From contig MU057719.1 of assembly GCA_013265495.1 (NCBI GenBank), positions 312,001 through 376,000 of the forward strand: 64,000 bases of DNA, read 5' to 3'. The DNA is from Vicugna vicugna. Its lineage: Eukaryota. The notes below the pieces were generated by a model, which had not been told where the DNA came from, made no database searches, and saw only the letters and a program-made list of their open reading frames with translations. Positions 4,301-63,289 of this stretch are shown here, piece by piece (the first letter of the stretch is position 1; each line of letters starts with the position of its first letter). The position numbers and the translations under genes were made by a program.

Positions 4301-5959
4301 TGGACGTCAGTCCATGAGGGGAGGGACCCTCGGCCCGCCCCCCCTTCCGTGTCCCCGAGTCCGGCGCTTGGCCCGGCCCCAGCAGGGACACGGCACCCCA
4401 CCCGCCCGGGCCCTCGGTGTCCACAGCCCCGGCCACCCAGGCCTTCCCCTCCCTCCCCTGGCCTGGAGGGGTCCGGGCCCAGGCTCTGCGGCCCTGGGGC
4501 GTCTCCTCCGGAACCCACCGCGAGAGCGGAGCACGTCCAAACCCTGTGCTCAGTGAATTATAATTTTCCTTCATTTCCCCTTCGAAACACACTAATTAAA
4601 CGGACATTGTTGAGACAGCCCATTGAAATTCAAAAAAGGGTCCTCTTTCTACAGAAGACATCTATTACTTCAGAGGCAATTGTGCGCATTGTGTGAGCAG
4701 CGCGTGGCCGCACACACGTGCTCGCACGCGCGCACAGGCGGGTGCGGACGCCCGGCCCCACCTGCGGGCTGTGCCTTCCCGCCCAGAGCCAGGGCTGCGG
4801 GTCGAATTGTTTCTTTTTCCTGATGTTTGCCAAGGCAACTAGGACGCAAACAACCTCAGAACGTCCTTTCCTCCCGCAGCGGCGTGGCACCCGTGCCGGA
4901 GGAGTCGGGGAGGCTGCGCAGCGACCCTCACGAGATGCCACCCCACGCACCGGGGGCCCCTCCCCCCGGCTGGCTGCTCCCACGGAGGACGTCATCTCCC
5001 CCACAGCCCTGTCCCCCCTTCACCTGAGCCCGTGCAGAGGCTTCTGGACCCAGCCTGGGGACGGGGGAGGCCCTGGCCAGCCTGGCGAGACCCTGACCCC
5101 AGTCTCCAGGGTGACAGACCAGGGGCTTCATGACCGGACAGGAAACCTTCAGCCTTCCAAAACCCGGCAGGGGCGCTGGGCCTTCTGGTACCTGGGACCC
5201 ACCCGGGGGCATCACGTTCCTTTTTAAACATAATTCCTTGATGTCTTTAGTCTAAGTGTAGCCAGCTTACCGAAAGTGCACACAGGATGGGACTTCTCAC
5301 ACAGTGCTGCTCTGCACGACCCCCGCCCAGGGAGGACCGGACTTCACCACAGAAAGGGCCCCTCCCGTCGCCGCTCCCCGGGCCCAGGCCACCGCCGGCA
5401 CCAGTCTTGACTCCTAAGCCCTCGGCTCTCTCTTGCCTGCTTGACCTTCTGACAAGGGGCTCATCTGTGAGTTGGTGTCCGGCGGCTGTCACCAGCTCCC
5501 AGGGGAGACTTGCCACGCGTGCAGGTGTAGCTGGTCCGTCCTGCAGCCACATGTGGATTTACTCCCGTGCTGCCACGCAAGAGCGCCTGCGTCCTCTCCA
5601 GCTTGGGGCCAGCACGGGCAGGGCTGCGGTGGTCCCCACCCCCCGGCAGCAGGATGCGCGTGCCTGGAAGTGGAGCTGCCGGGTCGCTGGTCCGTGGATC
5701 CCGCAGCCGCGAGGACAGAAGCCTCAGGTGCGGCTTCAGCCCAGGGCTTCTCAGGGAGATGCACACGGCTTCTCGTGTGGGCTCTCCCTGCCCCTCCACC
5801 CCTGCGCCGAGTCCAGGTCTCTCTCTCCTGGGGTTCTGTTCTCCTGCCTGTGGTCCAGCCTCTGCAATCCGGTCTCCTGGCCGACATCAGAACTGTGCTT
5901 TCCAGTAGGCAAAGCTGGACCTGTCGCTGGCCCTGTCACTGGCCTGGCCACTCTCACTG

Positions 5960-10311: not shown

Positions 10312-10516
10312 AGGGGGAGGGGGAGGAGGGAAAGAGGGAGGGAAGGGGGGAGGAGAGAAGAAAAGAGAGGTGGGGGAGNNNNNNNNNNNNNNNNNNNNNN
10401 NNNNNNNNNNNNNNNNNNNNNNNNNNNNNNNNNNNNNNNNNNNNNNNNNNNNNNNNNNNNNNNNNNNGAGAGGGGGAGGGAGAGGAGGGGAGAGAGTGGA
10501 GGGGGAGGGGGAGGGA
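10312..10516. repeat. GA-rich polypurine low-complexity tract spanning an assembly gap
   Basis: Almost pure G/A sequence on both sides of the N run. Confidence 0.9.
10379..10467. other. Assembly gap (89 N)
   Basis: Run of N characters. Confidence 1.
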
Positions 10517-12139
10517 GCTGCCACCGCAGGCTTTGTTGTCCGTCTCAGCACCACTTAACCCAACTGTTAAAGAGATTCCGAGGCAATTAGGCTCAGGGGA
10601 AGCCATAAATCTCAATAACCATCAGCCCAAGTTTTCTCCCCTCCTTGAAACAACAGATATAATTTCACTGGTTGCGCCCAGACTCCCAGAGGGCTTTCTG
10701 ATAAAAAGCCACTTCTTCAAAACATCAAACCCAAGTTCCTCTCATCTTTCAAGCAACCAAGGGTCAGGTTTCCCTAGAGTGGACGGAGGCCTGGGGCGGG
10801 AGGCGGGCAGGCAGCGGCCCGTCCTCTGTGGTCCCGCCTGCCTTCCACAGCCGAGAGGTCAGTGCCGAGGCCGAGGGTTCCCAGATCATTCTGTGGCCTC
10901 CTTGAGTCTGCCGTGACACCTCTGAGAGCTGGTCCCCTGATCTCTGCTTGGTTGCCCCTGCTGGCGGGGTGCTCACTATGGCTCGCACTGGTCCACGTCA
11001 GGAGGGCTCTTCTGGAAGGAAGTGCTTCTGATGCTGCTTCACACCTGCCTCCCACACCACCCCACAGGTCCTGGCTCTGTCTGGGGGTGTACAGGATCCC
11101 CCCTGGTGGGATGGGGAGCCTGCAGGTGACTCCCAGAAGCTGAGACACACACGGAGAAGATGGAGGGGGGACCCTCAGGAGTGGGGTGAGCAGGGGAAGT
11201 ACTCACATTGCATCTCTGTGGTTTTACTCTGGGTAAGCTTTATCCTTAGACATTGGAAGGGCTTGGAGAAAGTTCTCGAGCAGCCAGCCCCCTGCAGACG
11301 CCACTGATTCCTCACAATAACAGAGGTGGGAAAGGGGGAGGGGGAGGGCAGGTTTCACTGTTCCCATTCTACAGAGCGGGAGACTGAGGCTACCAAGGGC
11401 CCCGCCTGGCCCCCTCCTCGCGGAGGCCTCCCCAACTTCCCCTCCCAAGAGTTGGAGGTGGGGCTACACCTGGGAACTCTGGGCTCCCCTCCAGGGAAGG
11501 TGGGGACGCGGCCTCCTGGGCTTGCCTTTTTCCCCTCTGCCAGACGGGGAGCCCCTTGAGGGCAGACACTGAGCTTGTGGGGGTTCTCACCTCCCCCTGA
11601 ACCCTTGGCTCCCACCTCAGAAGACCCCTCCATAAAACAGGGTTACTGTGGAGACCCGGTGAGGAGGCGAGAGGAGGAGTCACCAGCGGTCCGATCCCCT
11701 GGGGCTGGGAGCGGGGGTCAGTCACACTCTGCAGCCCTGCCACCTCCAGCGCCCGGATCCTGCACGTGGGCTCCTGAACAGGCAAACGCCACGTCCCCTT
11801 GAAGGCGGCCCAGGACACCCCGTGGTCACGTATCTGCTGCATTTCCACCCCTGAGCTCGCTCTGCATGGGTTTGTCTTATTTTCAAGACAGCGAGCACGG
11901 TCTTGCAGAGCGCAGGGCCGGCTGCACCGGGCTGGGCGGCCACTCCCACCTGCGGGCTGCAAGGAATGAAGCCAGTCCTCCTGCTCCTCCAAGGCCGGGG
12001 TCCCTCTCTCCCCGTCGCAGGGCCTGCGGTGTGGTCACTACAGGCCGGCAGAGCAGCAGGTGAGGGGCCTGCGGCTGCTCTCTCCACCCAGAGATGCGTG
12101 GCCCAGGCCCTCCCGACGGCCAGCCCTCCCACAACCACC

Positions 12140-25090: not shown

Positions 25091-27914
25091 CTCTCCGGGG
25101 CTCTCGGGAAGGACCACGCGGTCCTGCCAAGGGGAGGGGCAGGAGCAGGACCCAGCCGACGTCCTCATGTGGAATCTTCGCATCGACAGGAAAAAGCTCT
25201 GCCGCCCCCACCCCCCACGGAGCCCACTCTCCCACCCGGCTGGCTCCTGACCGGGCTGGGGAGAGCAGTCCTCTCTCCCCCTCTCCAGCCTCCACCACTT
25301 CAGATTCAAGGCAAGGCAAGAACCCATGTCTCTGCTTGTCTCCAAAGCACAGTTTCTCGCACACGACGTGAACTAACACCAGGATTCATCACTCCTCCCT
25401 TAACCGTCCATCAGCTCATTGAAGACCTTACCAAGCGACGGTGCCAAGAAAGTCAAAGAAGGGCCAGGACGGTAAACACGACAAACCCAGGCATCTTGTG
25501 ATGCTTTCACAGGCGTGAAAGCTGCGTCCTAGAGAAGACCGGAGCGGCGAGCCCCTTATGCTCAGAGGCGGCAGTGTGTCCTGGGAAGCGGGGCAGCCTC
25601 GGGGGGCCACTCTAGGGGGCGAGGCCCCTCACCTGACTCCCAGGGGCTGCGGGCTCCCAGTCCACCCCAACCCAGCCCCCTGCACTAGGGGCGCCCTCGT
25701 TTCTTTGACGGGGTGGAGGGCTCTTTGGGAACCTGGTGGAGCCCATGAGTCCTCCCCAGCAGTGCGGGTGGGGTCAGAGGACATGCACCCTGAAGCACCC
25801 AGACACCGTCCAGGCTTCCCGGAAGCAGGTGGAGCCCTGCTTGCACCGCCCAGGCACCGTGCACAAGGGTCTCCTGAGATTCCCAAAGTCACGGTGGTGA
25901 GAGGCAAAGCTGAAATCCAGTCTGAGGTCTGCTTGATCCCAAAGCCCAGGTCTTTTCCTTCGGAAGCTGCCTGTGCCCCCTTCTCCAGGTCCCCAAAGAT
26001 GGCCCCGAGCTGGGGGTCTGGACATTCAAGGGGGTCCCTAGGATGCAACGCAGGAGTTTGCCGGATGCTAAGAAAGCAGCTCCCCTCTGACCCAGCAATG
26101 TCCCCATGTCACCCCCATCAGAGCCACCCCCCTCCGCCCCTGCCCCTCCGTCCTGGTTTCCAAGCCGACTCCCTGAGCCATCTCTGCGCTACAGAATCAT
26201 ACCCCAGGTGCCAGCCTGCCCGCGGAGAGATGGTTTTATGCAATTGTGTGAGGATTTCCCAAGAAGGTGACCATTCTCTTCCTTCCGTGGCTGAGTCATA
26301 AAAATAGAGTGGCCTCCGCGGCAGTGGGCTCGTCCCCCGCCCAGCCCTCCGCATTCTGGCTAATGTGCCGTCCTCCCCCAGGCTTCGGCAGGCAGCAAAA
26401 TATCTTCTCCTGCGACCCGGGCCGCAGAGTCCTTGCCTCCTGAGTGGCCAGTAAACTCTGCCCCAATTTAGCTAACGAGGAACCAGTGGGGCCGGACTTC
26501 CATCTCCGCAGGCGCCCCACTGCCAGCCGGGACCCGTGAGTCGCCTGGCATCATCACTGCCAAATGAAGGCGGCCGGGAGCCCCACGCACCTGCTCAGGA
26601 CCAGGCGGGCCCAGGGGGTGGGAGTGAGAAAATGGGTCTTTAAATAATTATCATCTCAATCCCTCCCTAAAAGCTACATCGGGCAAAAGGCTTTGAATAT
26701 TGTTTGAGCCCATTACCAGCCTATAAAGTAATCGCTCACGGCACACTGAGGCGGCGTAAGGGGGACTGGGAGGGGGTGAAGCGGTTACGCACAAGGCCCG
26801 AAACGCCCGCAGAAGAGGCGTATTTCGCACTCAATTACAATTAAATTTGGAGACATCTCCTCCAGCCGGTGAGCAAACAGAATCTGTGTCAGCCTCCCCA
26901 AGGGCTGCGGCCCGATCGGTTTATCTACTTGCTGTTGGAAGATCCCGAGCAGGTGGCCCCCTGGGGTCTGGGCTTCAAATGTGGACGCAGAAAAGAGCCA
27001 GGACATGGCCTTCAAGGCAACCCCCTCTTGCCCACATTTGCGAGTATCAAACCTAAAAATCCAGAGCCTGCCCAGCAACCTGCAGGGAAGAGACGCGTGA
27101 TGAGCTCTCACGGGCCCAGGGCTCCGCGACGAGGAGCGGGGGGCGGGGGAGGGCCCTCCAGGGTCAGGGCCAGCCGGGGGCCTGCGAGCAGGGGAGGCGG
27201 GAAGCCCCGGAGGGCCTTCAGACGCCGCCCAGCGACGGGCGCCGGGGTCCTGCCAGTGGGAGGGCCCCGCGCCAGCCCCGGGTGATGGCGTCTTTGTGCT
27301 CCACCTGCTCGGCCAAGCTAAAAAGCAGCAAGGCCACAAGCGCCCTCTTCCAGAACCGTGGGGAGACGGGGTGGGTCTGCCCCGCACCTCGGGCCCCTCC
27401 TTGGGACAATTTCTGCTCTCTCCTCCCAAACAGGCAAGTTCCATGACTGCCTTTCCCCACCCAGTGCAGAAGGTGATGAGCCTAGAGCTGCTGAGAAGGG
27501 TGAACTCCCAGACCAGCGCCGGCCCCTCCTGTCGGCCCCTCGGGAGGGCTCGGACGGGGTCATTGACGGGTGCGGACGGCCCCCTGCCCTCCCCGAGGGC
27601 TCCCCACATGCCCCGCGCTCGCATCTGACCCCTCGGCAGAAGGCGCTGTGGGTGTCACCAACCCGTTTGGCCACAGGGAAGACTGAGGCTCCAGGAGGCA
27701 AAGCCGGCAAGCGGAGGAGCCGGATGCGAACCCAGCACCCTTGGCCTCAGAGGCCCGTCCAGTACCTGCTGCCCTCTGCCCTCGCGGAGGTGGGCGGGAG
27801 GGAGCCCACACCCGCGCCAGGTGGGAGCGGAGGGAGGCGACCTGGCCCCCGGGGCAGGGAATCGCACCCCCCCCACACGGCGCGGGGGCGTGGGGGCGGC
27901 GTCCCAGTCTGCCC

Positions 27915-28267
27915 AGCGCGGGCTTGGCGCTTATAGGACAGAAGGGTGTTCTCTCGGTTTTGGGGGCTAGAGGTCCAAGATCAGGGTGCCGTCGGGCTGG
28001 GTGCTGGTCCGAGCTGGCTTCCTGGCTCACAGGTGGCCGCCCTCTGCCCGCGGCCTCACGTGGCCTCTTCCCTGTGGGGGCCGAGAGAGCTCGGTGCTCT
28101 CTTCCTCTGCTTACAGGGACACCAGTCCCACCGGATCAGGTCCCACCCTTACAACCTCATTTAACCTTAAGTTCCTCCCTAACGGCCGTGTCCCCAAGTG
28201 CGGTCACGCTGGGTGTTACTCAGGGCTTCAGCACAGGGATCTGGGGGACACAGTTGGGTGCGTAACA
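27915..28267 (-). mobile_element. MaLR LTR (MLT1A-like)
   Basis: ggctagaggtccaagatcagggtgcc...cctcacgtggcctcttccctgtg...tcttcctctgcttacagggacaccagtccc...acctcatttaaccttaa...gggacacagttgggtgcgtaaca. Confidence 0.85.
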
Positions 28268-28589
28268 GTGGGGAGGTCCTCTCACCCCGAACGGGGAGTG
28301 AGGAGCCGAGATCACCAGGTCATGCATTCATCATGAGACTTGGAGGCCAGGAAACCCCTGACCAGCAGCCAGAGAACACACCTCAGGTCTAGCCAGACCG
28401 ACCAGGTCCAGGGCCACGTGGACAAGAAAGAGGGGACAGATTACAGACCGGCGGGCGACCCAGCAGCCCGAGAGAGCCGAGTGGCAGAGTTCACGAGCCT
28501 GTAGACCACCGACCACTAACCAACCACCCCGACCACCCCGACCACGCAGGGCAGTGCGTCCCCCGAAGCGCGCACTGTGGTGGGCTCTC

Positions 28590-29208
28590 AGAAAACCCAG
28601 ACCAGGGCCACCCAAGCACCACCCCCTGCGGTCACTAACGGCCCCGTAACCACTGCCCTGACTCCTGAAGCCACAGGGTAGGTTTGCCTGCTTTGGAACC
28701 CACCTAAACGGAACCAGACAGAGCGAGCAATTCCTCTTCCCCGGCTCCTCGCGCTCAGCACGCTGCCTGGGAGGCGCCAGCATCGCCGCTCGCGCGCGGC
28801 CCACGGTTCATTACTGTCGGGCCGCAGCTGTGGCGGGAACCCACGCGGCTAGTCCACCCCCGACTGATGATGGACGTCGGAGCAGGTGCAGCTTCTCGGC
28901 TCGTTCAAACCGTGGCGGTAGGATAGCTCCCGTGTGCCCCTGTGGGAGGGCCCAGTTGCTGGGCTCCGGCTTCGCGGGCCACACCGGAGCGCTTCCCAAG
29001 ATGGCGGAGCCGCCCCGCACGCCCACCAGCGGCGGGAGTCCCGGCTCCGGCACAGCCCCGCCGGCACAGGGTATGCTGCCGGTGTCTTAAGTTGTAGCCG
29101 TTCTGGTGGGTAGGTCTGCTGGTGCCCCCTGGAGTTTCACTGGCATTTCCCACATGAATGATGAGGTTGGCCAGCTTTTCGTAGGCTGAGTGGCTACCTG
29201 GAAATCCT
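28590..29208 (-). mobile_element. Ancient L1 (L1M/L1ME-like) 3' UTR, heavily GC-substituted and CpG-rich
   Basis: Collinear landmarks of the antisense L1M 3' UTR: gtaaccactgccctgactcct, ttgcctgctttggaac, ctcagcac, tgatggacgt, ttgctgggc, cccaccagc, tagccgttctggtggg, gcatttccc, tgatgaggttg. Confidence 0.75.
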
Positions 29209-29209
29209 A

Positions 29210-29512
29210 TGTTTTTTAAATTGCAGTACAGTCGGTTACAACGTGACAATTTCTGGTGCACAGCATATGTCCCAGTTGTGCATGTCCATATACATGCATG
29301 CATTTGCTTTCACGTTCTTTTTCATCAAAGATTATTACAAGATATTGGATATAGTTCCCTGTGCTCTACAGAACAAATCTGGTTTTTATCTGTTTTTATA
29401 TATAATGGTTAACATTTTAAAATCTCAAACGCCCAGATATACCGCATCCCACACCCTTTCCCTGGTAACCACAAGATTGTCCACTACGTCTGCAGGTCTG
29501 TTTCTTCTGTTC
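29210..29512 (-). mobile_element. 5'-truncated camelid-type L1 3' end inserted in the older L1
   Basis: Poly-T start, then cagtcggttacaacgtgacaatttctggtgcacagc...gatatagttccctgtgctctacag...ctggtaaccacaag...gtctgtttct. Confidence 0.85.
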
Positions 29513-29519
29513 ATCAGTG

Positions 29520-29750
29520 TCCTCCTCCTCCGCCTCCTCCGCCTCTTTCTTCTCCTTCTTCCTCTCCCTCTTCCTCTCCTTCCTCTCCCTCTCCCTCCCC
29601 TTCTCCTTCCCCTTCTCCTTCCTCTTCCTCTCCTTCTTCCTCTTTCTTTCTCATTCCCCTTCTCTTTCTCCTTCCTCTTCCTCTCCTTCTTCCTCTTTCT
29701 TTCTCCTTCCCCTTCTCTTTCTCCTTCCTCTTCCTCTTCCTCTTCCCTTC
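29520..29750. repeat. CT-rich polypyrimidine low-complexity tract
   Basis: About 230 bp of nearly pure C/T (tctcct/tcttcc units). Confidence 0.95.
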
Positions 29751-29980
29751 TGTTTGAAGCAGAGCTTGTTCAAGAGTCCTGCCCCCTTCTCTACTGGTCA
29801 TCTTTTCCTTGTTGATTTGTAGGCGTTCTTCCTGCCCCCCAGGTGTGAGGTTTCTGTCAGGTGACTGTATGGCAAACATATTCTCCAAGTCTGTGACTTG
29901 CCTTTTCGGCTCTCAGTTGTGTCTTTTGATGAACAGAATTCTTAGTTTTAAAGGAGAATAGTTCATAATTCTTTCCTCTG
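29751..29980 (-). mobile_element. Continuation of the ancient L1M
   Basis: ttgttcaag..ttgttgatttgtagg..gcaaacatattctccaagtctgtgacttgccttttc..gtgtcttttgatgaacagaa continues the L1M consensus after the insertion. Confidence 0.8.
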
Positions 29981-30489
29981 GGGCCCCCGTCACTGTGGCT
30001 GGTCTTACGGCCAGACGGTCAGGCTCGCTGCCTCCTGACTGGCTCCAGGCCACTTGCCCCTTCCAGGATGGCCTCTTGGCAAAAAGGAGCCTGGAATGAC
30101 TGGGTGGCAGGTATGACTTCATGTTTAATGGCATTCTTATGGTGTCCCTGGTGCAAGTGTCCCCTTCTGGGAAGCAGGACTTGTAGACCGCAGAGCTGGA
30201 GTCGTGGGGATGGAAAATAAAAATTTCCAAAATAGGTCACTGGGAGCGACAGTGAGTAGGGCCCCTCCTACCGAAACCCTTGGCTCCCAGCCCCCAGACT
30301 CTGCCTGTGGGGGCGCAGCATCACGCGTCCCGGAGGATGCGCGCCATCTTCACAGGGGGCGTCTACAAGCCAGAGGCAGCGGTGCCTTCGCAAGGCTGCT
30401 CCGTCTGTCCCCGGGCCGGCAGCTGCCGGATGCAGTAGCCAGCACAGCCACGGCCGGATGCCCGCAGCCCAACCCCCTCTGTTGTAAAG

Positions 30490-33450
30490 CTTCTCCTTCC
30501 TTTTCTAGTTTCTTAGGACGGAAGGTGAGGTTATTGATTTGAGATCTTTTTCACACTAGACGTTTACCCATGCAGTTCCCTCTGAGCGCTGCTTTAACCG
30601 TATCCCTTGTGGTTTGGGTACGTTCTGTTTTTGTTTGCATTCTTTTTGAAGTATTTTTTCTAGTTTCCCGTCTTCCTCTTCCACCCATTTGTTATTTAGG
30701 AATGTGTTGTTTAATGCCCACATATCTGTGAATTCCCCAAATTTCCTTCTGGTTTTAATTTCTAATTTCTTTCCGTTGCAGTCAGAGCACATTTTTTGGT
30801 ATGATTTCAATCCCTTAAAATGCACTGAGACTTGTTTCATGCTGTAATACGCGGTCTGTCCCAGAGAGCGTTCCACGCGCACTTGAGAAGAACACGCATT
30901 CTGCTGCTGATGGCTGGAGTGTTCCACAGGCACCTGTTAAGCTCCCTGGTGGATGGTTCTGTTGAAGTTTTTATTTCCTTGTTGCTTTTCCATTTGTTAT
31001 ATCTATTTTTGCAAGTGGAGTATTGAGGTTTCCAGCTATTGTAGTTGAACTGTCCGCTTTTCCCAGTTCTGTCACTTTTTGCTGCGTGAATTCTGTTGTC
31101 AGGTACGTATACGTTTATAATCATTGAGTCTTCTTCGTGGATTGACCCTGTTACCACTACACCCCCCTTCTCTGTCTCGATAACAACTTCTGTGCCGACG
31201 TCAATTTTGTCCAGTATTAGTATGGCCACTCCAGCCCTCTTTTGAACAGTTTACATGGAATAGCTTCCTCCATTCTTTTACTTTCAACCCGTTCGTGTCC
31301 TTGGCTCTGAAGTGAGTCTGTCTGTTGTAGATAGACATCATTGGATCCTGTCATTTTATCTGGTTTGCTAATCTCTGCCTTTTAATTGCAGAGTTTTAAC
31401 CTATTTACATTTAATATAATTACTTTTAAGAACGAACTCACTTCCGTTTTGCTATTTGTTTTCTGTATGTCTTCTTTGTTTCTCAGTTCCTCCATCACTG
31501 CCCACACTTGTGATAAATAGATATTTTCTGCTGTACCATTTTAATTTCACGTAACTTCTTTTACTGTACATTTTGAGTTACTTTCCCATGGTTGCCCCAG
31601 AGATTACAATTAACATCTTAATTTGTAACAAGCTAGTTTAGATTAATATCATTGATTTTCAATAGTACATAAAAATGTTGCTCCTGTGTATCTCCACCCC
31701 CTACTTTTATGCCATCACTGTCATCCAAACTGTGTCTTCATACACTGTGTGCCCATCAGCCTGGATTTATAATTATTATTTCATGCAATTATCTTTTAAA
31801 TCAGATATTTTAGGAATAAGGTGCAAACTGAATACACGTCCTCGGCTGTCTTACTCAGGATTGTTTGTGCATGGTGCTTCATTTCTGCTGCTCTCAAGAG
31901 TCTCACTTTGTCTTCAGCTTTTGAAGGTTGGGTTACGATGGGTGAATCTCTGAGTTCTTTGAGCTTCCTAGATATGAAAAAAAATATTTCCTGTCAAATT
32001 TGGGAAGGTTTTAGCCACTGTTCTTCAAATATCCTTTCTTCCTCTCTCTTTCTCTTCTCTCCTTCTGGAACTCCCATTATGCGTATTTTGGTTTACTTCG
32101 TGATGTCCCACAGGGATCTGAGGGTCCGTTCATTTTTCTTCATTCCTTTTTCTCTCTGTTTCTCAGAACGGATCATCTCAAGTGACCTACCTTCAAATTT
32201 GCTGACTCTTTCTGTTCCTCACTCTGTGGCTGAGCTACTTTAGTGGCTTTTTCACTTCAGTTATTGTGCTTTTCAACTCCAAACCTTCCGTTTGTTTCTT
32301 TCTTATATTTTCTATCTCTCTGTCAATTTTCTCAGTCTGGTGAGACATTGTCCTTTAGTCCTTTAGACGTAGTTTCCTTTAGCTCATTGGACACATTTTA
32401 AATTGCTCACACAGAGTCTGTCTAAAAAGTCCCAAGTCTGGACTTCCTGCGGGATGGTTTCTACTGATTTCTTTCTCCCCGTGTATGAACCATACTTTCT
32501 TGTTTCTTTGCATACCTTATAATTTCTAGTTGAAAACTGGACATTTTGAATACTATAATGTGGCAATTCTGGACACCAGATTTTGTCCTCTCCCCAAGGT
32601 TTGTTTTTGCTGCTACTGATTGCAGTTGTTGGAATTTTTTTAAGTGACTTTTTGGAACTAATTCTGTAACATCTGTATGATTGTCATATGTGAACCTGAA
32701 ATCTCTGTTTTGTTAGCATATGGTCAGCTACTGATGGACAAAGATTTCCTTAAGGGCCTGGGGGGGGGGGAACTTTCCAGTCTTTGCCAAAGGGCTCTGG
32801 GGCCAAGCCATCAACACTGAGCCAGGCAGCTTCCAACTCTGCCTTAGCCTTCACTTCCTGCCTCTGCAGAGAGTGCCAGCAGGAGGCAAGAGCTCGGGGC
32901 CTGCTCGGCCTCTCCTGAGGAAGCGTGCTTTGCCTCTTAGATCCCTAGGAGCGAGTCCAAGCTCTCCAAACCCCTTGGGGGCATCTCGTTCCCAGCCTTT
33001 CCTCCCAGACTTTGTGATTAGTCTGTTGTTTGCCCAGCTGTTCTCTGTCACCTCAAGCAGAGCTCAGAAACTGTGCTCAGTAACTGCCCCAGCATACACC
33101 TCGAGCCCTAGGCCAATTCTGAGGGAGGCGAAATGCAGACAAGCTTTGGAGCTGGCCTTCCAGAGAGCACAAGACGAGTCAGAACACATAATTAGTCAGG
33201 ACTCTGTGCATGAGGCCTGTTCTGCTTTCTCCAGTATTGGGAACGTGGGCTGTTATTCTCACAGCCACTGCCGAGCTGAAGAGCAGTGGGGGGACTGGGT
33301 TAACAGGCCATCGGATGAACTGCACTCACTGAGAATCAGCTGTTTCCCTCAAGTAAGCATTCCCCGGGCTGCTGCAAGCCTTTGGGTGACTCCTAGTGTT
33401 CTGGGGGAGAAAAAGTGGTTGCTTACAATGTTTGTCCCTTTTAAAGCTGC
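30490..33450 (-). mobile_element. Degenerate L1M fragment: ORF2 endonuclease region, inter-ORF, ORF1 and 5' region
   Basis: Minus-strand peptides AILILDKID..GSIHEEDSMIINVYVP (30837-31229) and SDCNGKKLEIKTRRKFGEFTDMWALNNTFLNNKWV (30556-30933) match the L1 ORF2 APE endonuclease, with frameshifts. AT-rich block. Confidence 0.9.
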
Positions 33451-33975: not shown

Positions 33976-35524
33976 GGCCCCGTCTTCCATGGGAGACCAT
34001 GGGGGACCCCAGGAACACCTTGGCCCCTGCAGACCTCCTCTCCCTCCTGCCTGGCCTTTCTGCCCTTCCAGCACCTTTGGGACTGGTTCCCTACACTCAG
34101 TTCTCTCTGTGAGCCACCTGCCGTGAGCTCTGGTGTCCTGCCTGGCCCCTGGTGGCTGACAACTGGATAACAGCTCAGAACCCTCAACCTGCCATTCTCA
34201 CCTGGGGTCGCCCAGCAAGCTTACGGCCAGGCAGAGAGTAGCACCCAGGCCTCCCGCCCCCCAGCCTGGATGCTCTCTCGCCTTGTCCTGGCTTCCTCGA
34301 CCCGTAAGTGGGGTCACTAATACTGTCCTTTGTGGGCCACTGGGATATCCAGTGGCCTGGAGACACGAACGCTGGAAGCACTCGGGATGGTTAAGAGCAG
34401 CGTGCAGGAGGGGAGCTGACGCCTGCGGGCGGCACTCTTTATCCCTCTGGGATGGGTGTGTGGGACTCACAGCCCTGCCTGCCCCATGCTCCAGAGAGCC
34501 GGCTCGGGCAGCAAGCCCAGAGGGACAGAGATGCTCTTGTTGAGTTTCAAGCTTGCCCCTAAGAACAGGAATTCCAGGGGGTGGATTTCTGAAACCCTCT
34601 TGCAGGGAGGGGATGGAAAGAGGGCCTTTTCCCTCCCCACTGCCTCGGGCTGACTCAAACATCCTTCCCCCAGTGGAACGACTGTTTCCGATGATAAAGG
34701 AAATACATGCGCACTGTAAAAACAACAATAAAGAAGTCTGAGCAAGTCCCAGTGTGTGAATTACAGCGTGTCGCTGCCCCACCAGCCCCACGCCCCGGAG
34801 AGGATGCAGTTAACACACGGGCACGTGGCCACTGGGTGTTTTCACTGCGTCTGGGAAGATGCTGTTTCTGCCCAAGAGGGGCAGGGAGAACTGGCTGAGA
34901 GCCTGGGCTTCTGAGTTGGAGCGACCTGGCTGGGACTCCCAGTCCTGCCACCACTGCCACAGCTTCGTACACCTGAAAGGTGGGGACAGTCACACTGGCC
35001 TCACTAGGACGTGAAAATTCAATCTGAGGACACGGGTAAAATGCTAAGCAGAGAGCTGGGTCCTTACCAAGGTCTCCCCCGAGATTCTGATTCCAGTCCG
35101 TCTGTGTCCAAAACCCTCCCTCCCGAGCCTCGCCCTCCCCTGCCGCCGAGCCCAGCCAGCACGAACACAGAGGAAGGGGCGGGATGGGGCAGGGCTGACC
35201 CCCATGGGGGCTGCCCGCCCTTCTGCCCACCTGGAAGGGCCGGGACAGGGGAGGGGGGCCCAGCTGATCACAATGCCCCAACACCCCGTCCGGGGCTGCT
35301 CACCAAACGCGGCTCGGAGGACCGGCTGTCAGCGTGTTGGTGGGGCTTCCATGTGCGGAAGGCATTCAACAGACAAACAAGGGCAGGAATCGGGGTCAGG
35401 CAAAGGGGCACGGCCTTCCCCGCAGAATCCCTCGGCGACGTGAGCTGTGTTGGGACAGGGCTGCAGGGCCTTGCCCCCGCCAGGCGCCACCCCCTGACAT
35501 GTTCTGGGCTCTGGAACCTCCTTT

Positions 35525-36060
35525 TTGTTGGTAAACCTTATTTTTATAGACTCGTTGAAGATCTGCAGCAAACCTGAGGCGGCTGCCCAGAGAACCCCCA
35601 CCTCCCGGCACCTAGCTCCCCCGATCGCTGGCACCCGGCGTCCGCGTGGGGCGTCGGTTACGATGGGTCAGCCAACGGCGACACACTTGCTCAGTGTCCC
35701 CTAACGTCCTTCTCTGTCCCAGGGCCCCAGGGCCCGCGTGGCGTTCGGGCGTCGCGTCTCCTCGGGCCCCTCCGAGCTGGGCTGGTTTCTCAGACTTTCC
35801 TCACTCTGGCCAGCCGAGCAGCTTTGAGGAGGGCTGGCCGGGTTTCTGCAGATGTTCCTTAAAGGGGGCGGACGATGGGCTTGGGGAGGAGGACCCCGGA
35901 GGTGAGGCGGGGTGCGTGCTGTCCAGGGGGCTCGTCACTGCCGAACCCCGCCTCGGTCCCAGCGGAGGTCCTCTCTTCCGTGCTGCGCTCTGTGGCCCCC
36001 TGGGCCCCCCTTCTGGCGCCGCCCGTACGGAGCCTGCACTTGGGCGATGCTGATCCAAGT
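35525..36060 (-). mobile_element. Ancient L1MC-like 3' end, heavily GC-substituted and CpG-rich
   Basis: Landmarks: cagagaaccccc, ctaacgtccttctctgtcccaggg, gtctcctcggg, gtttctcagactttcct, tttgaggagggctggccggg, ggggaggaggaccccggaggtgag. Confidence 0.75.
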
Positions 36061-39000
36061 CCCGCATGCGGCAGGCGCCTGATTCACCGTCCCTGAGCTG
36101 AGCGGAGCCGGAAGCTAGGAGTGGCGCTCCCCCTCGGTTGGAGTCCCTCGCGGCTTGCGGTCTAGTTCAGCCCTGCCGCTCCCTGGAGCCTGGCTCGTCG
36201 GTTCGGCTCACTCGTGACTCGGGGGCTCCCCAGGCTCTGCACTCTCAGCCCCTGCCCACCCAGGAGGAGGGCGCCCCAGCTCCCCCACAAGTGCCCTGCC
36301 TGTAACCCCGCACAGACCTCAAAGGCACAGCAGCAGAGGGAAATCAGGACAGGTGAGGGCGCACGGTCCTCCTGGGGGGGGCGGTTCCGTGGCCGAGTGG
36401 AAACCACAGTGAGGTCAGGAGGAACGTGGAAAGGGCTCCGCGGGATCCCCGTGAGCGGGCAGCCCGGCCTGGGAGGGCCTGGCAGGGTGGGGGTGGACTT
36501 GCCCAAGCTCCACCCGCAGGTGGTTCGGGAAGAAGCCCCTACTCCACTCTTTCACTTTTTAAAAAAAATTTTTAAAGAAAAACAATTTAAATAATAAACT
36601 AAATAAATAAAATGAAGTCTCCAAACCAGGAACGGCGCTGACGGCTGCCTGCACCGTGGCAGCCGCCTGGGGGCCGGCCATGGCCACAGCGTACTCCCTG
36701 GACAGTGAGCTGGCTTCGCCTTGCGTGGGACTGAAGTTCAGGATTAGAGCCAGGGGGCGTTCTCTGTCTCCAGGGCCCTTGTGTCCCGCCTGGGATGCTG
36801 GCCTGTCGGGACGCTGTCCCGGGAGTGTAGCAGGTTTGTCTCTGACTCCAACCCCTCGGCCCTGGGGCACAGATGATGGGGGCTGCCGATCCCCATGTCA
36901 CAGGGGAAACTGAGGCAGAGTGATAACCCAGCTGGGCTCGCCAGCCCTCCAGCCAGAGGAAGTTGTCCCTGCTGGAGCCCCACCCAGAACACCTAGAATG
37001 CTGCTTCCTGGGGCCGACAGCCCAGGGCCTGGTGCGGAGAGGGCCGGACCCGAGCCGCCGCTCCAGGAGGGTGCAGCAGGGGCAGACCCTGGGGAGAAAG
37101 CAGCTGCCCAGTTGGAGGGGGAGGGCTCCTCTGGGGTGGAGGCCTGGTCAGACCCACCCCGCAGCCCCTCCCTGCCACCCCCACCGGGGAGAAGATCCTG
37201 CCTGGGAACAGTCACACTCGGGCCCGTGCCTCTCCCGGATGCCTACCGTCCAGAGAGGGTCCTCCCCAGCCACCGTCAGTTAGGGAGTGTGGGACGGAGG
37301 GGGCGGGGGTGGAGACCAGGAAGGGCCAGCAGCTGGCAGCCCTCCATGGAGGGCAAGCCCCCCCCCCACCGGCTGAAGGGTCCCTGGGCTGGACCCTCAA
37401 CCTCGCTGAGCCCGTGTCCTTCCTCAGAAGGGCGGCAGCAGCCAGCCAATCAATGGGGACTGGGAGGGGGCAGTGGGATTTGAATCCCGCACCTGGGGGT
37501 TCTGCCCACTGGGCCAGAACAGCCCGCGATGTGGGGGATGAGGGGGCACAAGGCGCCGGGACTCAGCCCTTCTTCCCTAGAACCCATCCAGAGGGCGCAC
37601 CACAGAGCTCCCCCACCGCCATGGGGACATCCCCAGCCACCAGGAGCCCCTCGGTCACATCGCCCCTTCTCCTGTGGAACCCTGTGCTCTTGCGCCGAGC
37701 CCGCCCTATGCCCCGTTGCAGGTCACCTCGCCGCCCTGAGCCTGACCTCCCGTCTGCAATGCACAGGTAACATTTGTTTCTGCTCCCGGACTCCACACCT
37801 GAGGGCTAAGACCGGAGGCCACCGCCAGCCTCCCTGGGGGCCCCGCTCTGGCCACCCTCCGTGCGCCGGGGGACGCCCACGGCAACGCACAGCGACGCAG
37901 GCAAACAGGAAGACACACAGCCGCAGCACCCAGGGGCACATCCCTGGGCTCGGCCTTGCTTTGGGGCCGGGGCACCCGGGGCTGTTCAATGACCACACCT
38001 CGTTCGGATGACTGCACTCAGCCCCGAGTGGCCAGCGGGCTCCGCAGGAGCCCCAGCAGAGCCCAGACCCCTGCCCCGCTCTGCACCCCTCTCCCTGACC
38101 CCCGCCTCCTTCTGGGGGCCGGGCAGGGGGGGCCCTGATCTAACCCTGAGGCCACTTGAACCCAGAGGTCAGCATCCGGGAGACGGCCCGAGGCCGATGC
38201 TTTAGTTTCTCCTGGCAGAACTACAGCTTCCTGCTTCCCAGGTAGAAGATGGAGCTCGGCTGTCAGATGGGGGACGGGCTGCTGACGAGCTTTGTGTGAA
38301 TAAATCAGAAACAGGCGGAGGAAACACCCCCGCGGTCTCACCGCAACGGCCAGGCACCAACGCTCAGGGGGAGTGTGTTGAGGGCAAAATGCCCCCGGGC
38401 CAACTCCAGCTCCGGCACAAACTCCCCGGGGACCCCACAGGCCGAACCTTTTCTGGGGACACAGCAGCTTGCGGGGAAGGGTCCAGGGCAGGAGGGTGTG
38501 CAGCCAGTTAGGCCCAAGGTACCCACAGGATGAATAGTCCTTAGAGGTAACCCCAGGAGCTCGAGGCCCAAGCCCTGGGCAGGTGGCTGCAGCCCAGACA
38601 CTCTCCTGTGAGTCTGCCTGGGCCTCAGTTTACCTGCCTGCTGAATGGGGACATCGACACTTGTGGGAACAGCCCCAGTGGGGCCACGCAGGAGGCCAGC
38701 CTCAGAGGCGTGGGTGTGCATGCTCTGGGGGAAAATTAGGGTCCCCCACCTTCTTGCAAATTGCTACCAGCAGTGTCCGACTCCTGTGGGCTTGCCACAA
38801 ACCTGCTTTCCCTCCATCACAGTGACTCGGTGACTCGGAAACCAAGCAGTGTGTCACTGCCTGTGTTGGCATTGCCAAGAGTGGTCACCCACAAAGCTCC
38901 CAGGTGCCCCACCCTCATACCCCCACCGGCACCGACCAGGCAGGCTGAGCACAAGGCCAGCTGGAGAACACATTCACTCCCTGGGCCCAGCCGAGATGGG

Positions 39001-47422: not shown

Positions 47423-50400
47423 TAATTCTCTTCCAGCCGCTGGCATCGCTCCTGCAGTGGGAAGGCAGCAAGCGCCCCCAGCCCAGAAAACCTGGGCCCT
47501 CCTTTCCCGCTGACTCCTGGTGCGCCCACCCTCCCCACCGGCAGGGGTTCAAAGGGGACGTGATCAGCGTTTGCCCAAGGGGGCTTTCCGGGCCCTGCCA
47601 CATGGGGGCCCCGGGCATGCACACTTGAGGGTCAACATGGGGGCTCTGGGGCCTGGGAGATGCGGACTGAGGGCTTGGCATCCTGCAGCAAAGATGGGGT
47701 TTGGCCCGAACCTGGGACCCCGAGACCCCCGTGCCCCAGAGCCCTTTCCCGGGGGCCCCGCTACCATCTCATAGGTCTGGTGCTCCTGGAGCAGCTTCCG
47801 GTAGCCCTGGGGCAGCCAAATGTCTTCCTCTTCCCCCTCCCCACAGAGCTTCATCTGAGGGGGCGGAGGTGGCAGTGGCAGGAGCTTTGGGGCGGCTCCA
47901 CGTGGCAGAGCCATCGAGTCAAACTGCCACCTCGGCCAAAGGGCAGGGAGAGTCCAAAGCCCCCACCTCACTGCTGGCATTTCTCACTGGCTTCACCGGA
48001 CATTTAAGAGCTCAGGGCTCCGTCTCCATCTCTCCGTCCAGCCCTCACATACTCCCTGCTGGCGTCAACTTCCCAAAACATGGGTGCCAGCCTACCATCC
48101 CGTCACTGCACAGTCCTCCTTGGCTCCCCGCTACCCCAGAATGAAAGTTCTCATCACACACAGGCTTCCTCTCCAGTGCCGGCCTCTCCTTCCCCACTCA
48201 GCTTCCCAAATTAAAGTCACACCTCCTCCTCCTGGATCTTCTTCCCAGGGACCCTCAGGATGTGCTGTTGCACCACGAGGCACCTCCCAGTCTGCCCCAC
48301 TCCCCTCATCACAATGGCCGGTGCCCGGTGCCCAGTGCCCCACCCCTCCCAGCCCTGCATGCAAGCTGGTCTGAACAGCTGATTCATACTAGAGTGAAAA
48401 TGGCTGAAAAGCCAGTAGCCGTGTGAATTTTCTCTGGAAACAAAGCACTATTTATATGGAGCTCCTTGTAGTCACACTTTAGCCAAAGACCCCGGACTTC
48501 AAGGTGGGGGGCTCCTCCTGCCCCCCCTTCTCAAGGCCCACAGTGTGACAGTGACTTGACCAGCCCCTCCTGGAGTTGATGGCAGGACTGGGTCAGGATT
48601 CCAGAGGCCCGGCCTGCAGCCCAGACCCCTCTATTTCCCAACCCAGCCGAGAGTGGGAGGCTGGGAGCCCTCTGGCCCCCGGAAGCATCTCCCGGTCATG
48701 GGACTCACAGGAGACTCCTGGTGGGGAGTGGATCCGAGGCCCTATCTCCAGGCGGGGGGAGGCCACGGGCCTCCAAATTCCAGGCTAATTGGCGTCTGGG
48801 GAGCGCACTCCTCAACGGCAGGCTTGTTCTCCTGCCCGGTCTGCGCACTGACGCTGCCCCGGGACACCCCCCCCAAACCCAAACTGACCCAGGCCCGTCT
48901 GCCGGGGCCGCCCCAGGAAGCCTCTGACCCGCGCCCTCTCCCAGCTGGGAGGCACCACAGCGGCTGGGCTGCCGGCCTGGGAGGAGAGCCCCCCTGACCT
49001 CGGGGCCAGAGCATCGCAGGGAAGCCGGCCCGAGACAGAGGCAGAGATGGAGCAGCCCGTGAGCAGCGGCAGGGAGAGGCGCCCACGCCGCCGCCGCCGC
49101 GGACACGCAGACCACGCTCTGGGCAGAGCTCGCCGCAAGAATTGCCCAACCAGACTATTGCAATAGGTTAGGGTTCCGATCGGCCCTGCAGATGGCCGTC
49201 AAGGCCAGGCCTCCCGGCCACCCTGAGCGCCCAGGCTTTGGGGACCGTGGCTGCCGAGTAGGGAGGAAAGGTCACATCCCTGGGCCCCCGAACACGTCGT
49301 CTGTGGGCAGGACGGGACGGGCAGGCATGGGGCTCACGGATGGTCATCCTCACCCCAGGACGGTCCTGAGGAGTCTCTCGTTTGGCCCCGGGGAAGCAGG
49401 GAAGAACCAAGTTGGGAAGACCGAGGGGGTAAAGGGACACAGCCAGACCACAGCCCAGGGCCCCGCTTCAGCATCCATCTTCCTCCAACCAAGACTCACC
49501 CTGCCCACCTCCCCCTCTGTCCAGCAGCCGGGCAGCCCCCTGGGCCTCTCACCAGCCCAGCCCAGGGCCTCTCAGCTTGGGTGGCCAGCAGACCAGACAC
49601 AGGTAGACGGCCCTGCAGGCAGACTGAGGGTCAGAGACTGCACTGACCTGCGCCTCCCTGGGCCCCCATCCCCTCTTTGAGGTTAGAGTCCTGCCAGGAT
49701 TCGGAAGCACCACCTGCATAGTGACGGCTCCCTTCCCACAGTCTTCTGGCTGGGGTCAACCCCAGAGGAGGGCCTCTCCACTCCCAAGGGGCCCCCAGCG
49801 CTCCCTGGTGAGATGCCCACCGTCCAGACTCGACCTTCCGCCCCACAGTGGGGTCTTGCCCTTGGGGTCCCTGCCAGGTTCTTGGCGAGCATCCCTGTGA
49901 CATGCTGGTCTCCGAGCCCCGCTTCCCAGCCACACCCACCTCCCAGCCACACCCACCTCTTGATCATGGAAGCCCAAGCAAGGAGAACCTTCTGGAAGGC
50001 TCAGCGGGGACGGGCCCAGCTGAGAGCTCTGTTGTCCGGCTACAGCCACGCTCAAGGATGTGTCCAGGACCACTGGCTGGCCCGTTCCCAGCAGATCCGC
50101 ATAATCCGCCCAAAGCAACATGGCTCGTTAAAAGTTTTATTGATTGAGCACAACTGAGTGTTGGTAGCAGAAGTCCTCCTGGTGTGGCCCACTTTTCCTA
50201 ATGGGTGATCTCAGGCACTCGAGCTAGTGTGTTAAAGGGGCTTTAGGACAGTTTAATAGCTCATAAAATTTTATAGTCCCAGTTGAAATCAGAGTGATAA
50301 CTCTGGTCTGCACAGCTAAATGTCTCTCATCTATTTTTTCCCCCGTTTATTGGAAAGTTAACATCTGCTCTGCTAAGGGCGGGAAGAAAAGGGAAGGAAA

Positions 50401-50649
50401 ATAATGATCTGTTTTTCTGGGAGAGAGGTAGGCAACTTGGGCTCTCCTGGCAGCATCTCATTTTCCAAGCGCATAGTTTTCCTTTAAGTCGGAAAGACGA
50501 TCGAGAAGCCGGCTGACCCACAGTTCACAGAACACCCCAGCAGGCATCGGTCCCCCCACAGCGACTGCTGAGAAGTTGAAGTCTATCCAGGCCACAGCCG
50601 CAGCCCGGGATCAGCACCAGCCTGGGGAGCCCATTAAGAGTCACTACTC

Positions 50650-50755: not shown

Positions 50756-51164
50756 TAACCGGGCTCTGCTCCCAGACAGCCCTTGCGAAGGCTTCTGGGA
50801 GGAGGCAGGGACAGGACAGACGCTCCAAGGAAGAGCAGGCTCAGAGGCTGGGCCCGACGACGGGAGAGCCCAAAGCCCTCGCTGCACCGCATGGTAGCGG
50901 GCCACCCGACCGACCTCCGGGAGCCCATTTCCCCGCCTTGCAAGTGCGAATCACGTTAGTACCTACCTCTCAGCGCCAGAGTGAGAACAAAAGGCAATAC
51001 AGCATGCGGAATGCCGGCCCACTGGTGTTTCAGACGCAGCCTCACAAGAAGGAGATCTGGGCAGACAGCTCGGTGGGTCCTCAAAAGTACACGTGGAGCT
51101 ACGCAGGCCCAGCAACTCCACTCCCCCATTTTACTCAAAAGAAGACTCAGCGGCACGGACAGGC

Positions 51165-51447
51165 GTTCCCACGCGGATGAAACTCAGACCCATCACGGGA
51201 GGCCCCGCGTGGTACGACTCCTTTGACGTGAAACATCAGCACAAGCAAATCCCTAGAGACAGAGAGCAGATTGGTGGTAGCCAGAGGCTGGGGAGGGGGC
51301 ATCCTTTTGGGGTGGTGACAGTGTTTCAGAACTAGAGGCGGTGGTTGCGCAACATTGTGAATGTGCTAAATGCCACTGAATTGCCTGCTTTAAATGGTTA
51401 GTATTTAGACATGTGAATTCCACCTCAATAAAAAACATTTTTTTAAG
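51165..51447 (+). mobile_element. L1MB-like 3' end
   Basis: gcaaatccctagagacagagagcagattggtggtagccagaggctggg...ggtggttgcgcaacattgtgaatgtgctaaatgccactgaattg...tgtgaattccacctcaataaaaa. Confidence 0.9.
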
Positions 51448-54045: not shown

Positions 54046-54254
54046 CTGACTCGGCCTTCCCGGCCAGGGGTCCCCTCACCTTCCAGGTCTGGAAGATGGG
54101 GTCCCAGGACGCTCGGAGGACACACACACCTGGAAAGTCCAGCACAGGTGAGGGCACTGGAACTGACTCGGCCTTCTAGGTCTGGAAGATGGGGTCCCAG
54201 GACGCTCAGAGAACACATACACCTGGAAAGTCCAGCACAGGTGAGGGCACTGGA
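54046..54254. repeat. Two-copy tandem duplication (about 116 and 92 bp)
   Basis: ctgactcggccttc...aggtctggaagatggggtcccaggacgctc...cacctggaaagtccagcacaggtgagggcactgga is repeated; the second copy lacks 24 bp. Confidence 0.95.
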
Positions 54255-56262: not shown

Positions 56263-58489
56263 GGGGCGGACCACACAGACCTGGGCTCCGGTCCCAGGCT
56301 GGGTAAATGCCCTGCCATCTGCGGGCCTCAGTTTTCCCATCTCTGAAGTGAGCGCATCCCAGACACACCAGAGCCAAGCACAGGAGCCCAGGAGTGCAGC
56401 CGCTTCCTTCTGTCCCACGTTCCCCCGACAGCAGGAGAGCGTGTCCATGTGTCGGCCCCAGCGCTTCCCCAGGGGGCCCTCTGCACGGAGCCAGCACACA
56501 GGAGGTGCTCCTCGAACGTGCATGGCCAAGAAATACGCCCTCTTGAGAGCCTCCCTTTCCTCAAGGGGGGCTAGTGGGGTCTCCCCATCCCCTCCGGGGG
56601 GAGGTAGCAGAGTTACAGGTGGCCGGTCTAACTGGCCGACGGGGTAATGCACCACTGAAGACGCAGGGCCCCCGAGTAAGTAGCTGGGCGCTATACATAA
56701 GGCCCGGGGAGGTTCATGAGCCCCAGGGAGGGAGGGAGGCAGGAGCTACTTCCTTCAGCACAGAATTCCCGCAGGGGCTGTCAGCGGGGGAGAGATGGAG
56801 CGGCCAGGGGCCCTGCCTGCAGCCCTGGAGCTGGGGGAGGCGGAGGCAGGGAGAGGGCTGGCCTGCCTTCAGGGGAGTGGTGGTGGACCCCTCCCAGGAG
56901 CCTCCCTATAATCTCAATTACTGCTCGGGGGGGCAAACGGGAGCCCCTCGCCCCAAGAGAGCGCCTAACGCTAAATCAGCCCATCATCTCCCCAGGCGGC
57001 CACCGGAATGGGGGAGCAAGTCAAGGAGCCGAGTGGCTTTGAGATGCCAGCTCCGTCCTCCACCCCGTCCCGCACCGGGCTCTCTGGGCATTTGGCTTGT
57101 TTGCCTGTTTGGTGACACTCCCCAGGGTGCTGTTTTTGCAGGAGGAAGGCGTGTCCCCAGAAGAGCCCTGCCTTCGGCTCCCAGCGGGCGCCTCGTGGCC
57201 CGGCCAGGGAGGGCCAGAGGCTAGGCGGGAGGTGGGCCCCCCTGGTGGCCAGGCCTCTGAGAGGAGACCCTCATCCCAGGAGCCCGTCCCGGCTTCACAG
57301 GGGGCAGCCGCTGCAGGCCCAGAGGGGGCAGAGGGACAAAGGGACAGACGGCACGGGCCCTTTCTGGTTGTCCCGGTCTCTGAGCAGCGTGTCCGGCCTG
57401 CACCATCCGGGGGCCGACTGGGTCTGGTACACGTGGGAAGAACCCTTTCTGGCTTTTGTTCAGCTATAATTTGCCTACAGCGCAGCCCACCCCTTTCCAT
57501 GCCCACGCCTGAGAGTTCTGACAATGCTTGCGGCCCTGTAACCATCGCCCTGTGGAGACCCAGCACACTCCATCACCGCAAACGGCCCGGTGCCCCTCGG
57601 CAGTCAGCCCGCCCCACCCCAGGCTCGTCCAGCCAGAAGGGGATGGAAGGAACCGTGTGTCCTGCAGCAGGTGAACTGAGCGCGAACTCGGCACCAGTGG
57701 TGAGGGAGAGGCCCCTGCAGCGGTCTCTCAGCCCCGCCAGCCCCGCCTTGTGTCCTTTGTTCCCGAGGGAGGCACGCTGGCGCTGGAGGGCCGCGGGGTG
57801 GCCGGGCTCACTGTCCCCTTGCCTCCCGCCGCCCGCCAGCGAGGAGATCACTCAGGCCCTGATATGATCACTGCGGGACAGGCGGAAATTGGAGTGTCCC
57901 CGGAGCTTGATCGCGCCAGCGAGAGCCACGGCCGCAGGGACATTAGCGGCCAGCGTAATGGCCTGCATTCAGCTCCCCTGGCAGCCCCGTGACCTTGGGC
58001 GGCTCGGAGCCCGTTGCCATTTTAATGAAAAATCAGGAGTTAGGGAATGGCTGTGGCTTAGAGAGGGCAGGAGGTGGGGAGCTCTGTGCCCGCCGCCCTC
58101 AGTCCATCTGTCCTCGCTGGCTGCAGGCCGCCCTGCCCCGCCGGCCCCATGGTGGTGGGGCCTGGGGACCCCTGAAGAGACAGAGATGCCCACGGCCGGG
58201 GACCTTGGGTCGAACCTGTGATGAGGAGCTGGGGAGCTGCCAGTGGTGGGGCTTCAGCAGGAGTCGGGGAGGGTACACCACGAGGGAGGCAGGGAGCCCG
58301 CAGGGGTCAGCCCTCACCACCCAGGACAAAGGGACCCTCGGTCCCTCCTGGGCCGAGTCACCCACTCCACCACCCGCTCATCAGCCTCAGTTTCCAGCTC
58401 TGCAGTAGCTCTGCCTGGTCCGGCTCCCCCAGGAGGAACCGACAGCTTCGATGAAGCACTTATTGTGTGTCCCCACTGTCCCCACAGCC

Positions 58490-63011: not shown

Positions 63012-63179
63012 GGCGGGACGGTCGGTCCAGCTCAGTGGCAGAGCACGTGCTTAGCACGCACAAGGTCCTGGGTTCATTTCCCAGTACCTCCATTAAAAAG
63101 AATAATTGAATACACAAAGCTAATTACGTCCTCCCAAAAAAGCAATAAAAACAAAAAGAAGACAAGAACAGCGACAAAA
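63012..63179 (+). mobile_element. tRNA-derived camelid-type SINE with A-rich tail and target-site duplication
   Basis: A box agctcagtgg (63029-63038), B box ggttcatttc (63071-63080), body cccagtacctccattaaaa..ctaattac. TSD AAGAAGCAATGGT (62999-63011) versus AAGAAGAAACGGT (63180-63192). Confidence 0.9.
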
Positions 63180-63289
63180 AAGAAGAAACGGTCGGAAGAA
63201 GAAACTCAGTTTGCACGGCAGTCTGACAAAGACCCTGAGGTTTCATTTCTACGTAGACATACGCAAAATCTAGCAGCTATTAAAAATGA

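Follow-up and report, generated by a model that had tools for sequence, protein, structure and literature searches.

A fragment of a dead, antisense LINE-1 (L1) element, lying at positions 28590-29208 of the 64,000-nucleotide stretch of Vicugna vicugna DNA analysed here (the window), has been rewritten toward G/C. The substitution pattern is best explained, with a probability that we put at roughly 70%, as the footprint of GC-biased gene conversion (gBGC) in a GC-rich region, conversion that was strong and either persisted for long or recurred, and we infer both gBGC as the cause and its long or repeated action. In this scenario, an old L1 would have inserted antisense and died, and a younger insertion would later have cut it in two. 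The distal part of the old element would have lain inside a zone in which meiotic recombination was repeatedly repaired toward G/C alleles, pushing A/T>G/C variants to fixation and purging G/C>A/T variants. The GC content of the block would thereby have risen from about 40-50% to 68-76%, with CpGs arising as a by-product. This process is a known side effect of recombination acting on a dead L1, and no new kind of element is involved.

Homology to L1 is clearest in the right-hand part of the block. The segment 28982-29208 was matched by nhmmer to two reference L1 copies, L002 and L003 (E 7.8e-5 and 1.4e-5), and to a piece of a third, L013 (E 6.9e-9), and none of 200 composition-preserving dinucleotide shuffles scored as high in alignment; the same count (0/200) was obtained for 29766-29973, across an intervening insertion. 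Because the two segments encode ORF2p residues ~1082-1158 and ~1005-1078, they are parts of one element split by 29211-29750, with the ORF2 numbering contiguous from 1078 to 1082 across the insertion. An earlier, sequence-only reading had described the block as an ancient L1M 3' UTR in antisense. The antisense L1 origin is borne out for 28982-29208, and L1M is kept here as a presumed subfamily label. The 3' UTR label is mistaken, as the aligned block corresponds to the C-terminal, zinc-knuckle region of ORF2p, and the landmark quoted in that reading, taken in antisense, encodes the ORF2p motif QPLWK (residue ~1150), just ahead of which ORF2p carries cysteine motifs at ~1129 and ~1141. In the published account of the protein, the wrist domain of ORF2p ends at residue 1061 and is followed by the C-terminal domain with its CCHC zinc knuckle (PMC10830420; PDB 9k6g/8uw3), which is the source sequence of the block. 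In contrast to the functional domain, the block is frameshifted and carries stops, and its frames found no match in protein-level searches (PDB, Pfam, our own ORF2p profile and tblastn). Self-BLAST of the 64-kb window returned no paralogue of the block.

Toward the left the homology fades. The stretch 28590-28980 gave no significant alignment to single references, bias-aware local alignment included, and anchored extension into it was weak, being equalled by 0-14 of 150 shuffles with L003 or L013 as the reference (as far as 28682) and by up to 26 of 150 with L002. A nucleotide profile built from 76 non-redundant ORF2p proteins extended colinearly from 28981 to ~28720, reaching residue 106 of 115. 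Shuffles did as well in 1-4 of 400 cases at end points 28882-28722 (12/400 at 28932; 7/400 at 28692), and the best extension score was attained by 7 of 318 other stretches of the window. Significant L1 alignment was therefore obtained directly for 28982-29208 and 29766-29973 and through the profile for ~28720-28981; 28590-28700 stays unaligned to L1, the 76-protein profile included. The ORF2 stop codon lies 354-372 nt past QPLWK in two intact references, a position that maps near 28700 in the window. ORF2 probably runs to about this point, and the 3' UTR remnant would take up at most ~110 of the 619 bp, at the CpG-poor left end. The CpG-rich part would be former coding sequence, because the ORF2 profile extends colinearly to ~28720 (Table 1).

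Table 1. The rewritten L1 block and its neighbours, in window coordinates
Feature	Positions	Strand	Remarks
CpG-island-like segment	28366-29189	.	824 bp, 65% GC, 64 CpG, o/e 0.73; Takai-Jones-style call
Possible L1 3' UTR remnant	28590-28699	-	by position only; CpG-poor (3 CpG, o/e 0.31)
Probable end of the ORF2 C-terminal domain of L1, strongly rewritten	28700-28981	-	68% GC, 30 CpG, o/e 0.93; anchored profile
Core of the bias, ORF2p ~1123-1158, cysteine motifs and QPLWK	28982-29085	-	76% GC, 13 CpG
Edge, ORF2p ~1082-1123	29086-29208	-	53% GC, 2 CpG
Insertion splitting the old L1	29211-29750	-	AT-rich piece 29211-29510 and C/T-rich tract 29520-29748
Continuation of the same L1, ORF2p ~1005-1078	29766-29973	-	equal-age internal control; 0/200 shuffles
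Separate L1 piece, ORF2 endonuclease region and ORF1 remnant	30461-33450	-	PDB, Pfam; 30461-30641 used as control

The AT-rich piece of the insertion (29211-29510) is, we presume, the 3' end of a younger camelid-type L1. The inserted younger piece has 37-39% GC and resembles a copy at ~63500-63620, and the only candidate for a target-site duplication is weak (9 bp with 2 mismatches). Its low GC means that it arrived late or lay outside the biased zone. Beyond it, the continuation (29751-29980) has 43.5% GC and a CpG o/e of 0.18, and the next L1 has 38-41% GC over 30490-32700, which agrees with the earlier description of the continuation and the L1 at 30490-33450 as comparatively AT-rich. The identity of the latter piece (30461-33450) is given by matches to the ORF2p endonuclease in PDB (E 8.4e-6) and to Pfam PF17489 (E 5.5e-5).

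Our references were natural L1 copies found on stray contigs of public collections (L001, L002, L003 and L013), together with 120 ORF2p C-terminal proteins. L003:443-1564 encodes ORF2p 895-1271 (PDB, E 1.5e-145); L002 and L003 share 90% identity, and either shares 74-76% with L013; we take these copies, by their look, to be rodent-type. They are modern, distant cousins of the vicuña element and not its L1M ancestor, and polarity is read against them. L002 and L003, like L016 and L017, are mammalian L1 contigs present as contamination inside two bacterial reference genomes, and L013 is an L1 in a viral-collection contig with construct-like, GC-rich flanks. L014 and L015 duplicate L003 and L002, L016 and L017 are too short for use, and nine matches between the window and the two contaminated bacterial genomes (L004-L012; E>=0.14) were dropped as chance. 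Viral contigs scanned with two patterns and with a single protein yielded no L1, and neither did plasmids or phages.

Over the core of the block, the references have 49-53% GC and 0-2 CpGs, against 76% GC and 13 CpGs in the window. The sequence-only reading had called the L1 consensus AT-rich, which is overstated for this region; the shift from about 50% to 76% GC is real. Changes were counted at columns in which all references agree, with the two columns beside each gap and 24 search-pattern positions dropped, and were compared with three L1 pieces of the window (29766-29973; 30461-30641, covered by one reference; 63767-63989, covered by two). Within 28982-29208, W>S changes affect 37 of 81 A/T (W) sites and S>W changes affect 7 of 60 G/C (S) sites, a ratio of 37:7 that differs from the 85:57 of the controls (85/283 and 57/176; p=0.0034, and 0.003-0.005 over three gap settings). 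This supports the earlier statement that the differences are mostly A/T to G/C. The bias is strongest in the core (28982-29085), where W>S changes occupy 15 of 23 W sites and no S>W change is found at 26 S sites (15:0, p=0.001), although these counts are small and the right boundary of the core was chosen post hoc from the CpG profile. The rate of W>S change per W site is 0.65 in the core against 0.30 in the controls (p=0.001), and S>S changes there number 4 of 26. The edge (W>S 22/58, S>W 7/34) does not differ from the controls (p=0.14), and the continuation shows 28/89 and 20/52.

The direction of the bias is stable to the choice of anchor. With L002 as the anchor, the core gives 16:1; the control continuation then leans W>S as well (22:11), a point against the gBGC reading. 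Two references compared with each other are near symmetric (135:114). At sites whose W or S state is fixed by the protein, the residue being shared by at least 80% of a non-redundant set of 63 ORF2p sequences (drawn from the 120), the block shows W>S at 19 of 46 and S>W at 1 of 44, and the polarity therefore does not depend on one reference lineage; the continuation offers too few such sites for comparison (W>S 2/10, no S sites). W>S transversions relative to W>W changes, at 12:5 against 25:28 in the controls, are not significantly raised (p=0.10, range 0.10-0.36), which counts against gBGC, a process that should raise W>S and leave GC-conservative changes at background. In its ratio of W>S to S>W changes, compared with neutral DNA nearby, the block carries the excess that characterizes a gBGC tract.

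The block is also CpG-dense, as the sequence-only reading had noted. Its 619 bp contain 48 CpGs (GC 64.9%, o/e 0.74), compared with 61.8% GC and an o/e of 0.45 for the whole window. Of 61,436 sliding 619-bp windows lying wholly outside the interval, 0.9% match or exceed its CpG count and 2.3% attain its o/e, and the tile containing it ranks 1st of 102 in CpG. Its GC content is the window norm, being attained by 39% of the same sliding windows. Of the 48 CpGs, 43 fall within 28700-29085 (o/e 0.87-0.93) and 3 within 28590-28699; the edge 29086-29208, GC-shifted yet poor in CpG, has the other 2. By the usual sequence definition (>=500 bp, GC >=55%, CpG o/e >=0.65), the segment 28366-29189 is a CpG island, one of 11 Takai-Jones-like islands in the 64 kb, and the claim of a new CpG island holds by these criteria and is confined to them. 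The left edge of this island lies ~220 bp left of 28590, and looser islands run near-continuously across 26133-29215. The rewriting had been called focal, and this description is apt only at the right edge, where the GC of the same L1 drops from 76% to 53% to 43% across ~300 bp of original sequence; leftwards, island-like sequence continues to ~26130. The block is therefore focal with respect to the L1 DNA on its right, with a GC content ordinary for the window and no fixed limit on the left. Its right edge is sharper than expected of the flank of a typical gBGC tract, a point against the gBGC reading. Further left, 27950-28270 (by eye an MLT1-type solo LTR, we presume) has 62% GC and 16 CpGs, and the biased zone may extend left of the block.

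These regional properties raise the alternative that no discrete hotspot existed and that the region drifted as a whole to ~65-70% GC under broad gBGC, with the AT-rich L1 pieces as recombination-cold exceptions. The window's overall GC, the 39% of stretches that are as GC-rich, the 11 islands and the island-like run to ~26130 would all follow from such a drift, and the control L1 pieces lean W>S too (85:57). We nevertheless consider this account improbable, as the same element, of the same age, is down to 43% GC no more than ~300 bp farther along its original sequence, and the block stands in the top 1% for CpG density with a core at 76% GC.

A second alternative, that germline hypomethylation alone kept and accumulated CpGs in a dead L1, can be addressed through the context of the changes. 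Escape from methylation halts CpG decay only. At sites that stand outside a CG, TG or CA context in both sequences, the ratio of W>S to S>W is 19:1 in the block and 47:28 in the controls (p=0.005), so that the bias is not confined to CpG-prone positions, as is expected of a gBGC tract. The main driver of this difference is the loss of S>W changes (1/21 against 28/84, p=0.007); W>S gain there, scaled to the number of W sites, is of borderline significance (p=0.04-0.14), a point against the gBGC reading. The missing S>W changes at these sites point to a fixation bias, of which gBGC is the established neutral source. Hypomethylation would account for the o/e of 0.87-0.93 over 28700-29085 and for the 8 of 15 window CpGs that stand opposite TG or CA in L013, some of which could be old CpGs lost in that reference. 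Against it, 6 of the 15 stand opposite other dinucleotides, and W>S gain is raised, protein-fixed sites included. Because the bias persists at sites that cannot be CpG decay, protection from methylation, which the sequence-only reading had offered beside local gBGC, is insufficient on its own; these counts largely refute it as the sole cause and make it very improbable, though it may have acted alongside gBGC. The gBGC half of the earlier proposal agrees with the substitution pattern (37:7; 19/46 against 1/44; 19:1). Strong conversion would also oppose CpG loss, so that the sequence fits a methylated island as well as an unmethylated one.

Selection is a still less probable source of the bias. 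If the fragment had been exapted as a regulatory element and its G/C and CpG gains selected, this would fit the association of orphan CpG islands with enhancer activity described in PMC11170920, and the AT-rich stretches at ~26200-26900 look conserved by eye. About two-thirds of the W sites of the core have changed and S>S changes reach 4 of 26, which gives no sign of constraint, and the longest plus-strand open frame over the core has no homologue, nor does the block match Rfam. Least probable of all is an artefact of alignment or a GC-rich L1 source: any GC-rich query shows W>S asymmetry against AT-richer references, and 28590-28980 aligns poorly, but 28982-29208 beats 200 of 200 composition-preserving shuffles, its ORF2 numbering is contiguous with the AT-rich continuation, and the result is stable to gap costs and anchor.

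The strength and duration of gBGC at the block were explored with a two-state toy model, for which the controls served as calibration. The model assumes a neutral GC* of 0.40 and places 50-90% of the control divergence on the window's branch. For the core, it gives B of 3.5-5 if conversion acted over the whole branch; confining conversion to the last fifth raises B to 16-26, and confining it to the last twentieth (5%) raises it to 64-110. Log-likelihoods for the core lie within about 3 units across durations, with no strong preference. In humans, B within hotspots is reported to have a median of 3.55 and to range up to 34, and hotspots to be at most 0.7-1.3 Myr old (10.1101/010173). Set against these values, the toy model makes it unlikely that a single short-lived hotspot sufficed, and we infer a long-lived or recurrent one. 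Slowly evolving, PRDM9-independent ("default") hotspots at hypomethylated loci are described as common in placental mammals (Joseph et al. 2024, PMC11161765), with the GC peaks of dog presented as a classic case (PMC4053742). Their slow evolution would supply the duration that the toy model calls for; the link is indirect at most, through that model's preference for long duration or an implausibly high B. The authors of the former study warn against applying substitution-based estimates to individual loci, and camelids were not found in its text or in four of its supplements. Such hotspots sit at existing hypomethylated CpG islands, whereas the block, known from sequence alone, shows the gBGC-tract pattern and fits the sequence definition of a CpG island; the status of functional island or hotspot goes beyond that.

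It is tempting to speculate that a self-reinforcing, PRDM9-independent hotspot arose de novo on dead L1 coding DNA. CpGs made by conversion would have escaped germline methylation and attracted further breaks, keeping the site active for tens of millions of years at a time-averaged B of about 3.5-5. The younger L1 insertion at 29211 would then have set the abrupt right-hand boundary and brought methylation to 29086-29208. We regard this extended history as conceivable and rather doubtful. If true, the birth of an island could be timed here with a ready clock, made up of the L1 scaffold, the control half that was split off and an insertion that can be dated.

Strong, long-lasting or recurrent gBGC would place the block among features that are already known. 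Islands that owe their CpGs to biased conversion ("BGC" islands) reportedly go back to Cohen, Kenigsberg and Tanay in 2011. They likewise gain CpGs through biased conversion, which requires neither selection nor hypomethylation, and a second-hand description has them constitutively methylated (PMC4417305); compared with these methylated islands, the block's o/e near 0.9 may mean hypomethylation or simply strong bias. The same source assigns BGC little contribution to keeping sperm-methylated human islands. Tracts of gBGC identified with phastBias have a mean length of 1,018 bp and are clustered toward the ends of chromosomes (Capra et al. 2013, PMC3744432), and the ~0.8 kb island fits their size. 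Orphan CpG islands overlapping gBGC tracts have been published (Kocher et al. 2024, PMC11170920). The present case differs from published tracts in that its ancestral state comes from L1 relatives rather than orthologues, and its GC shift is larger than in human-chimpanzee tracts. Our literature search, conducted largely outside the subscription journals, returned no paper on this locus and no camelid-specific paper on such rewriting.

Taken alone, the locus is one more instance of a published process and leaves our picture of that process unchanged. It is a tidy single-locus case of the birth of a CpG island without insertion of CpG-rich DNA, with a start sequence known from L1 relatives, half an element as a control and a younger insertion as a time mark. 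With orthologues and sperm methylomes, it could tell whether gBGC starts a hypomethylated island or only feeds an existing one.

Other repeats in the window show related compositions. The stretch 35525-35860 (63% GC, 26 CpGs, o/e 0.79) lies within an island at 35241-36275, and by eye we take 35525-36250 to be a second GC-rewritten antisense 3' end of an old L1. Likewise, 57455-57640 (62% GC, o/e 0.60), at the start of the island 57403-58056, is presumably a GC-shifted antisense old-L1 3' end. A sense L1 3' end at 51056-51437, whose ORF2 C-terminal part aligns to the references (0/300 shuffles), has a CpG o/e of 0.91 in its 5' half and 0.21 in its 3' half. A W>S bias in its 51056-51169 portion is not claimed, as pairwise counts of 22:4 and 18:8 gave way to 5:4 to 17:5 in 12 stricter counts (p>=0.07 against controls). 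The antisense L1 ORF2 fragment at 63767-63989 (E 3.5e-8) has 49% GC against 34-40% in the references and leans mildly W>S. A substitution test on MIR cores had no power, with none of 7 copies above the site threshold.

The remaining features are minor. A tRNA-derived SINE lies at 63029-63084 (Rfam tRNA, 35.6 bits), followed within 63029-63640 by an L1-like, AT-rich piece that is similar at its end to the insert at 29211-29330. Five AT-richer, non-repetitive-looking stretches (4550-4700, 10560-10760, 26200-26900, 50130-50500 and 61100-61780) resemble conserved non-coding elements by eye and may mark the neighbourhood of a developmental gene. An 89-base assembly gap interrupts a purine tract at 10379-10467, and a 93-bp tandem duplication, 95% identical, occupies 54079-54254.
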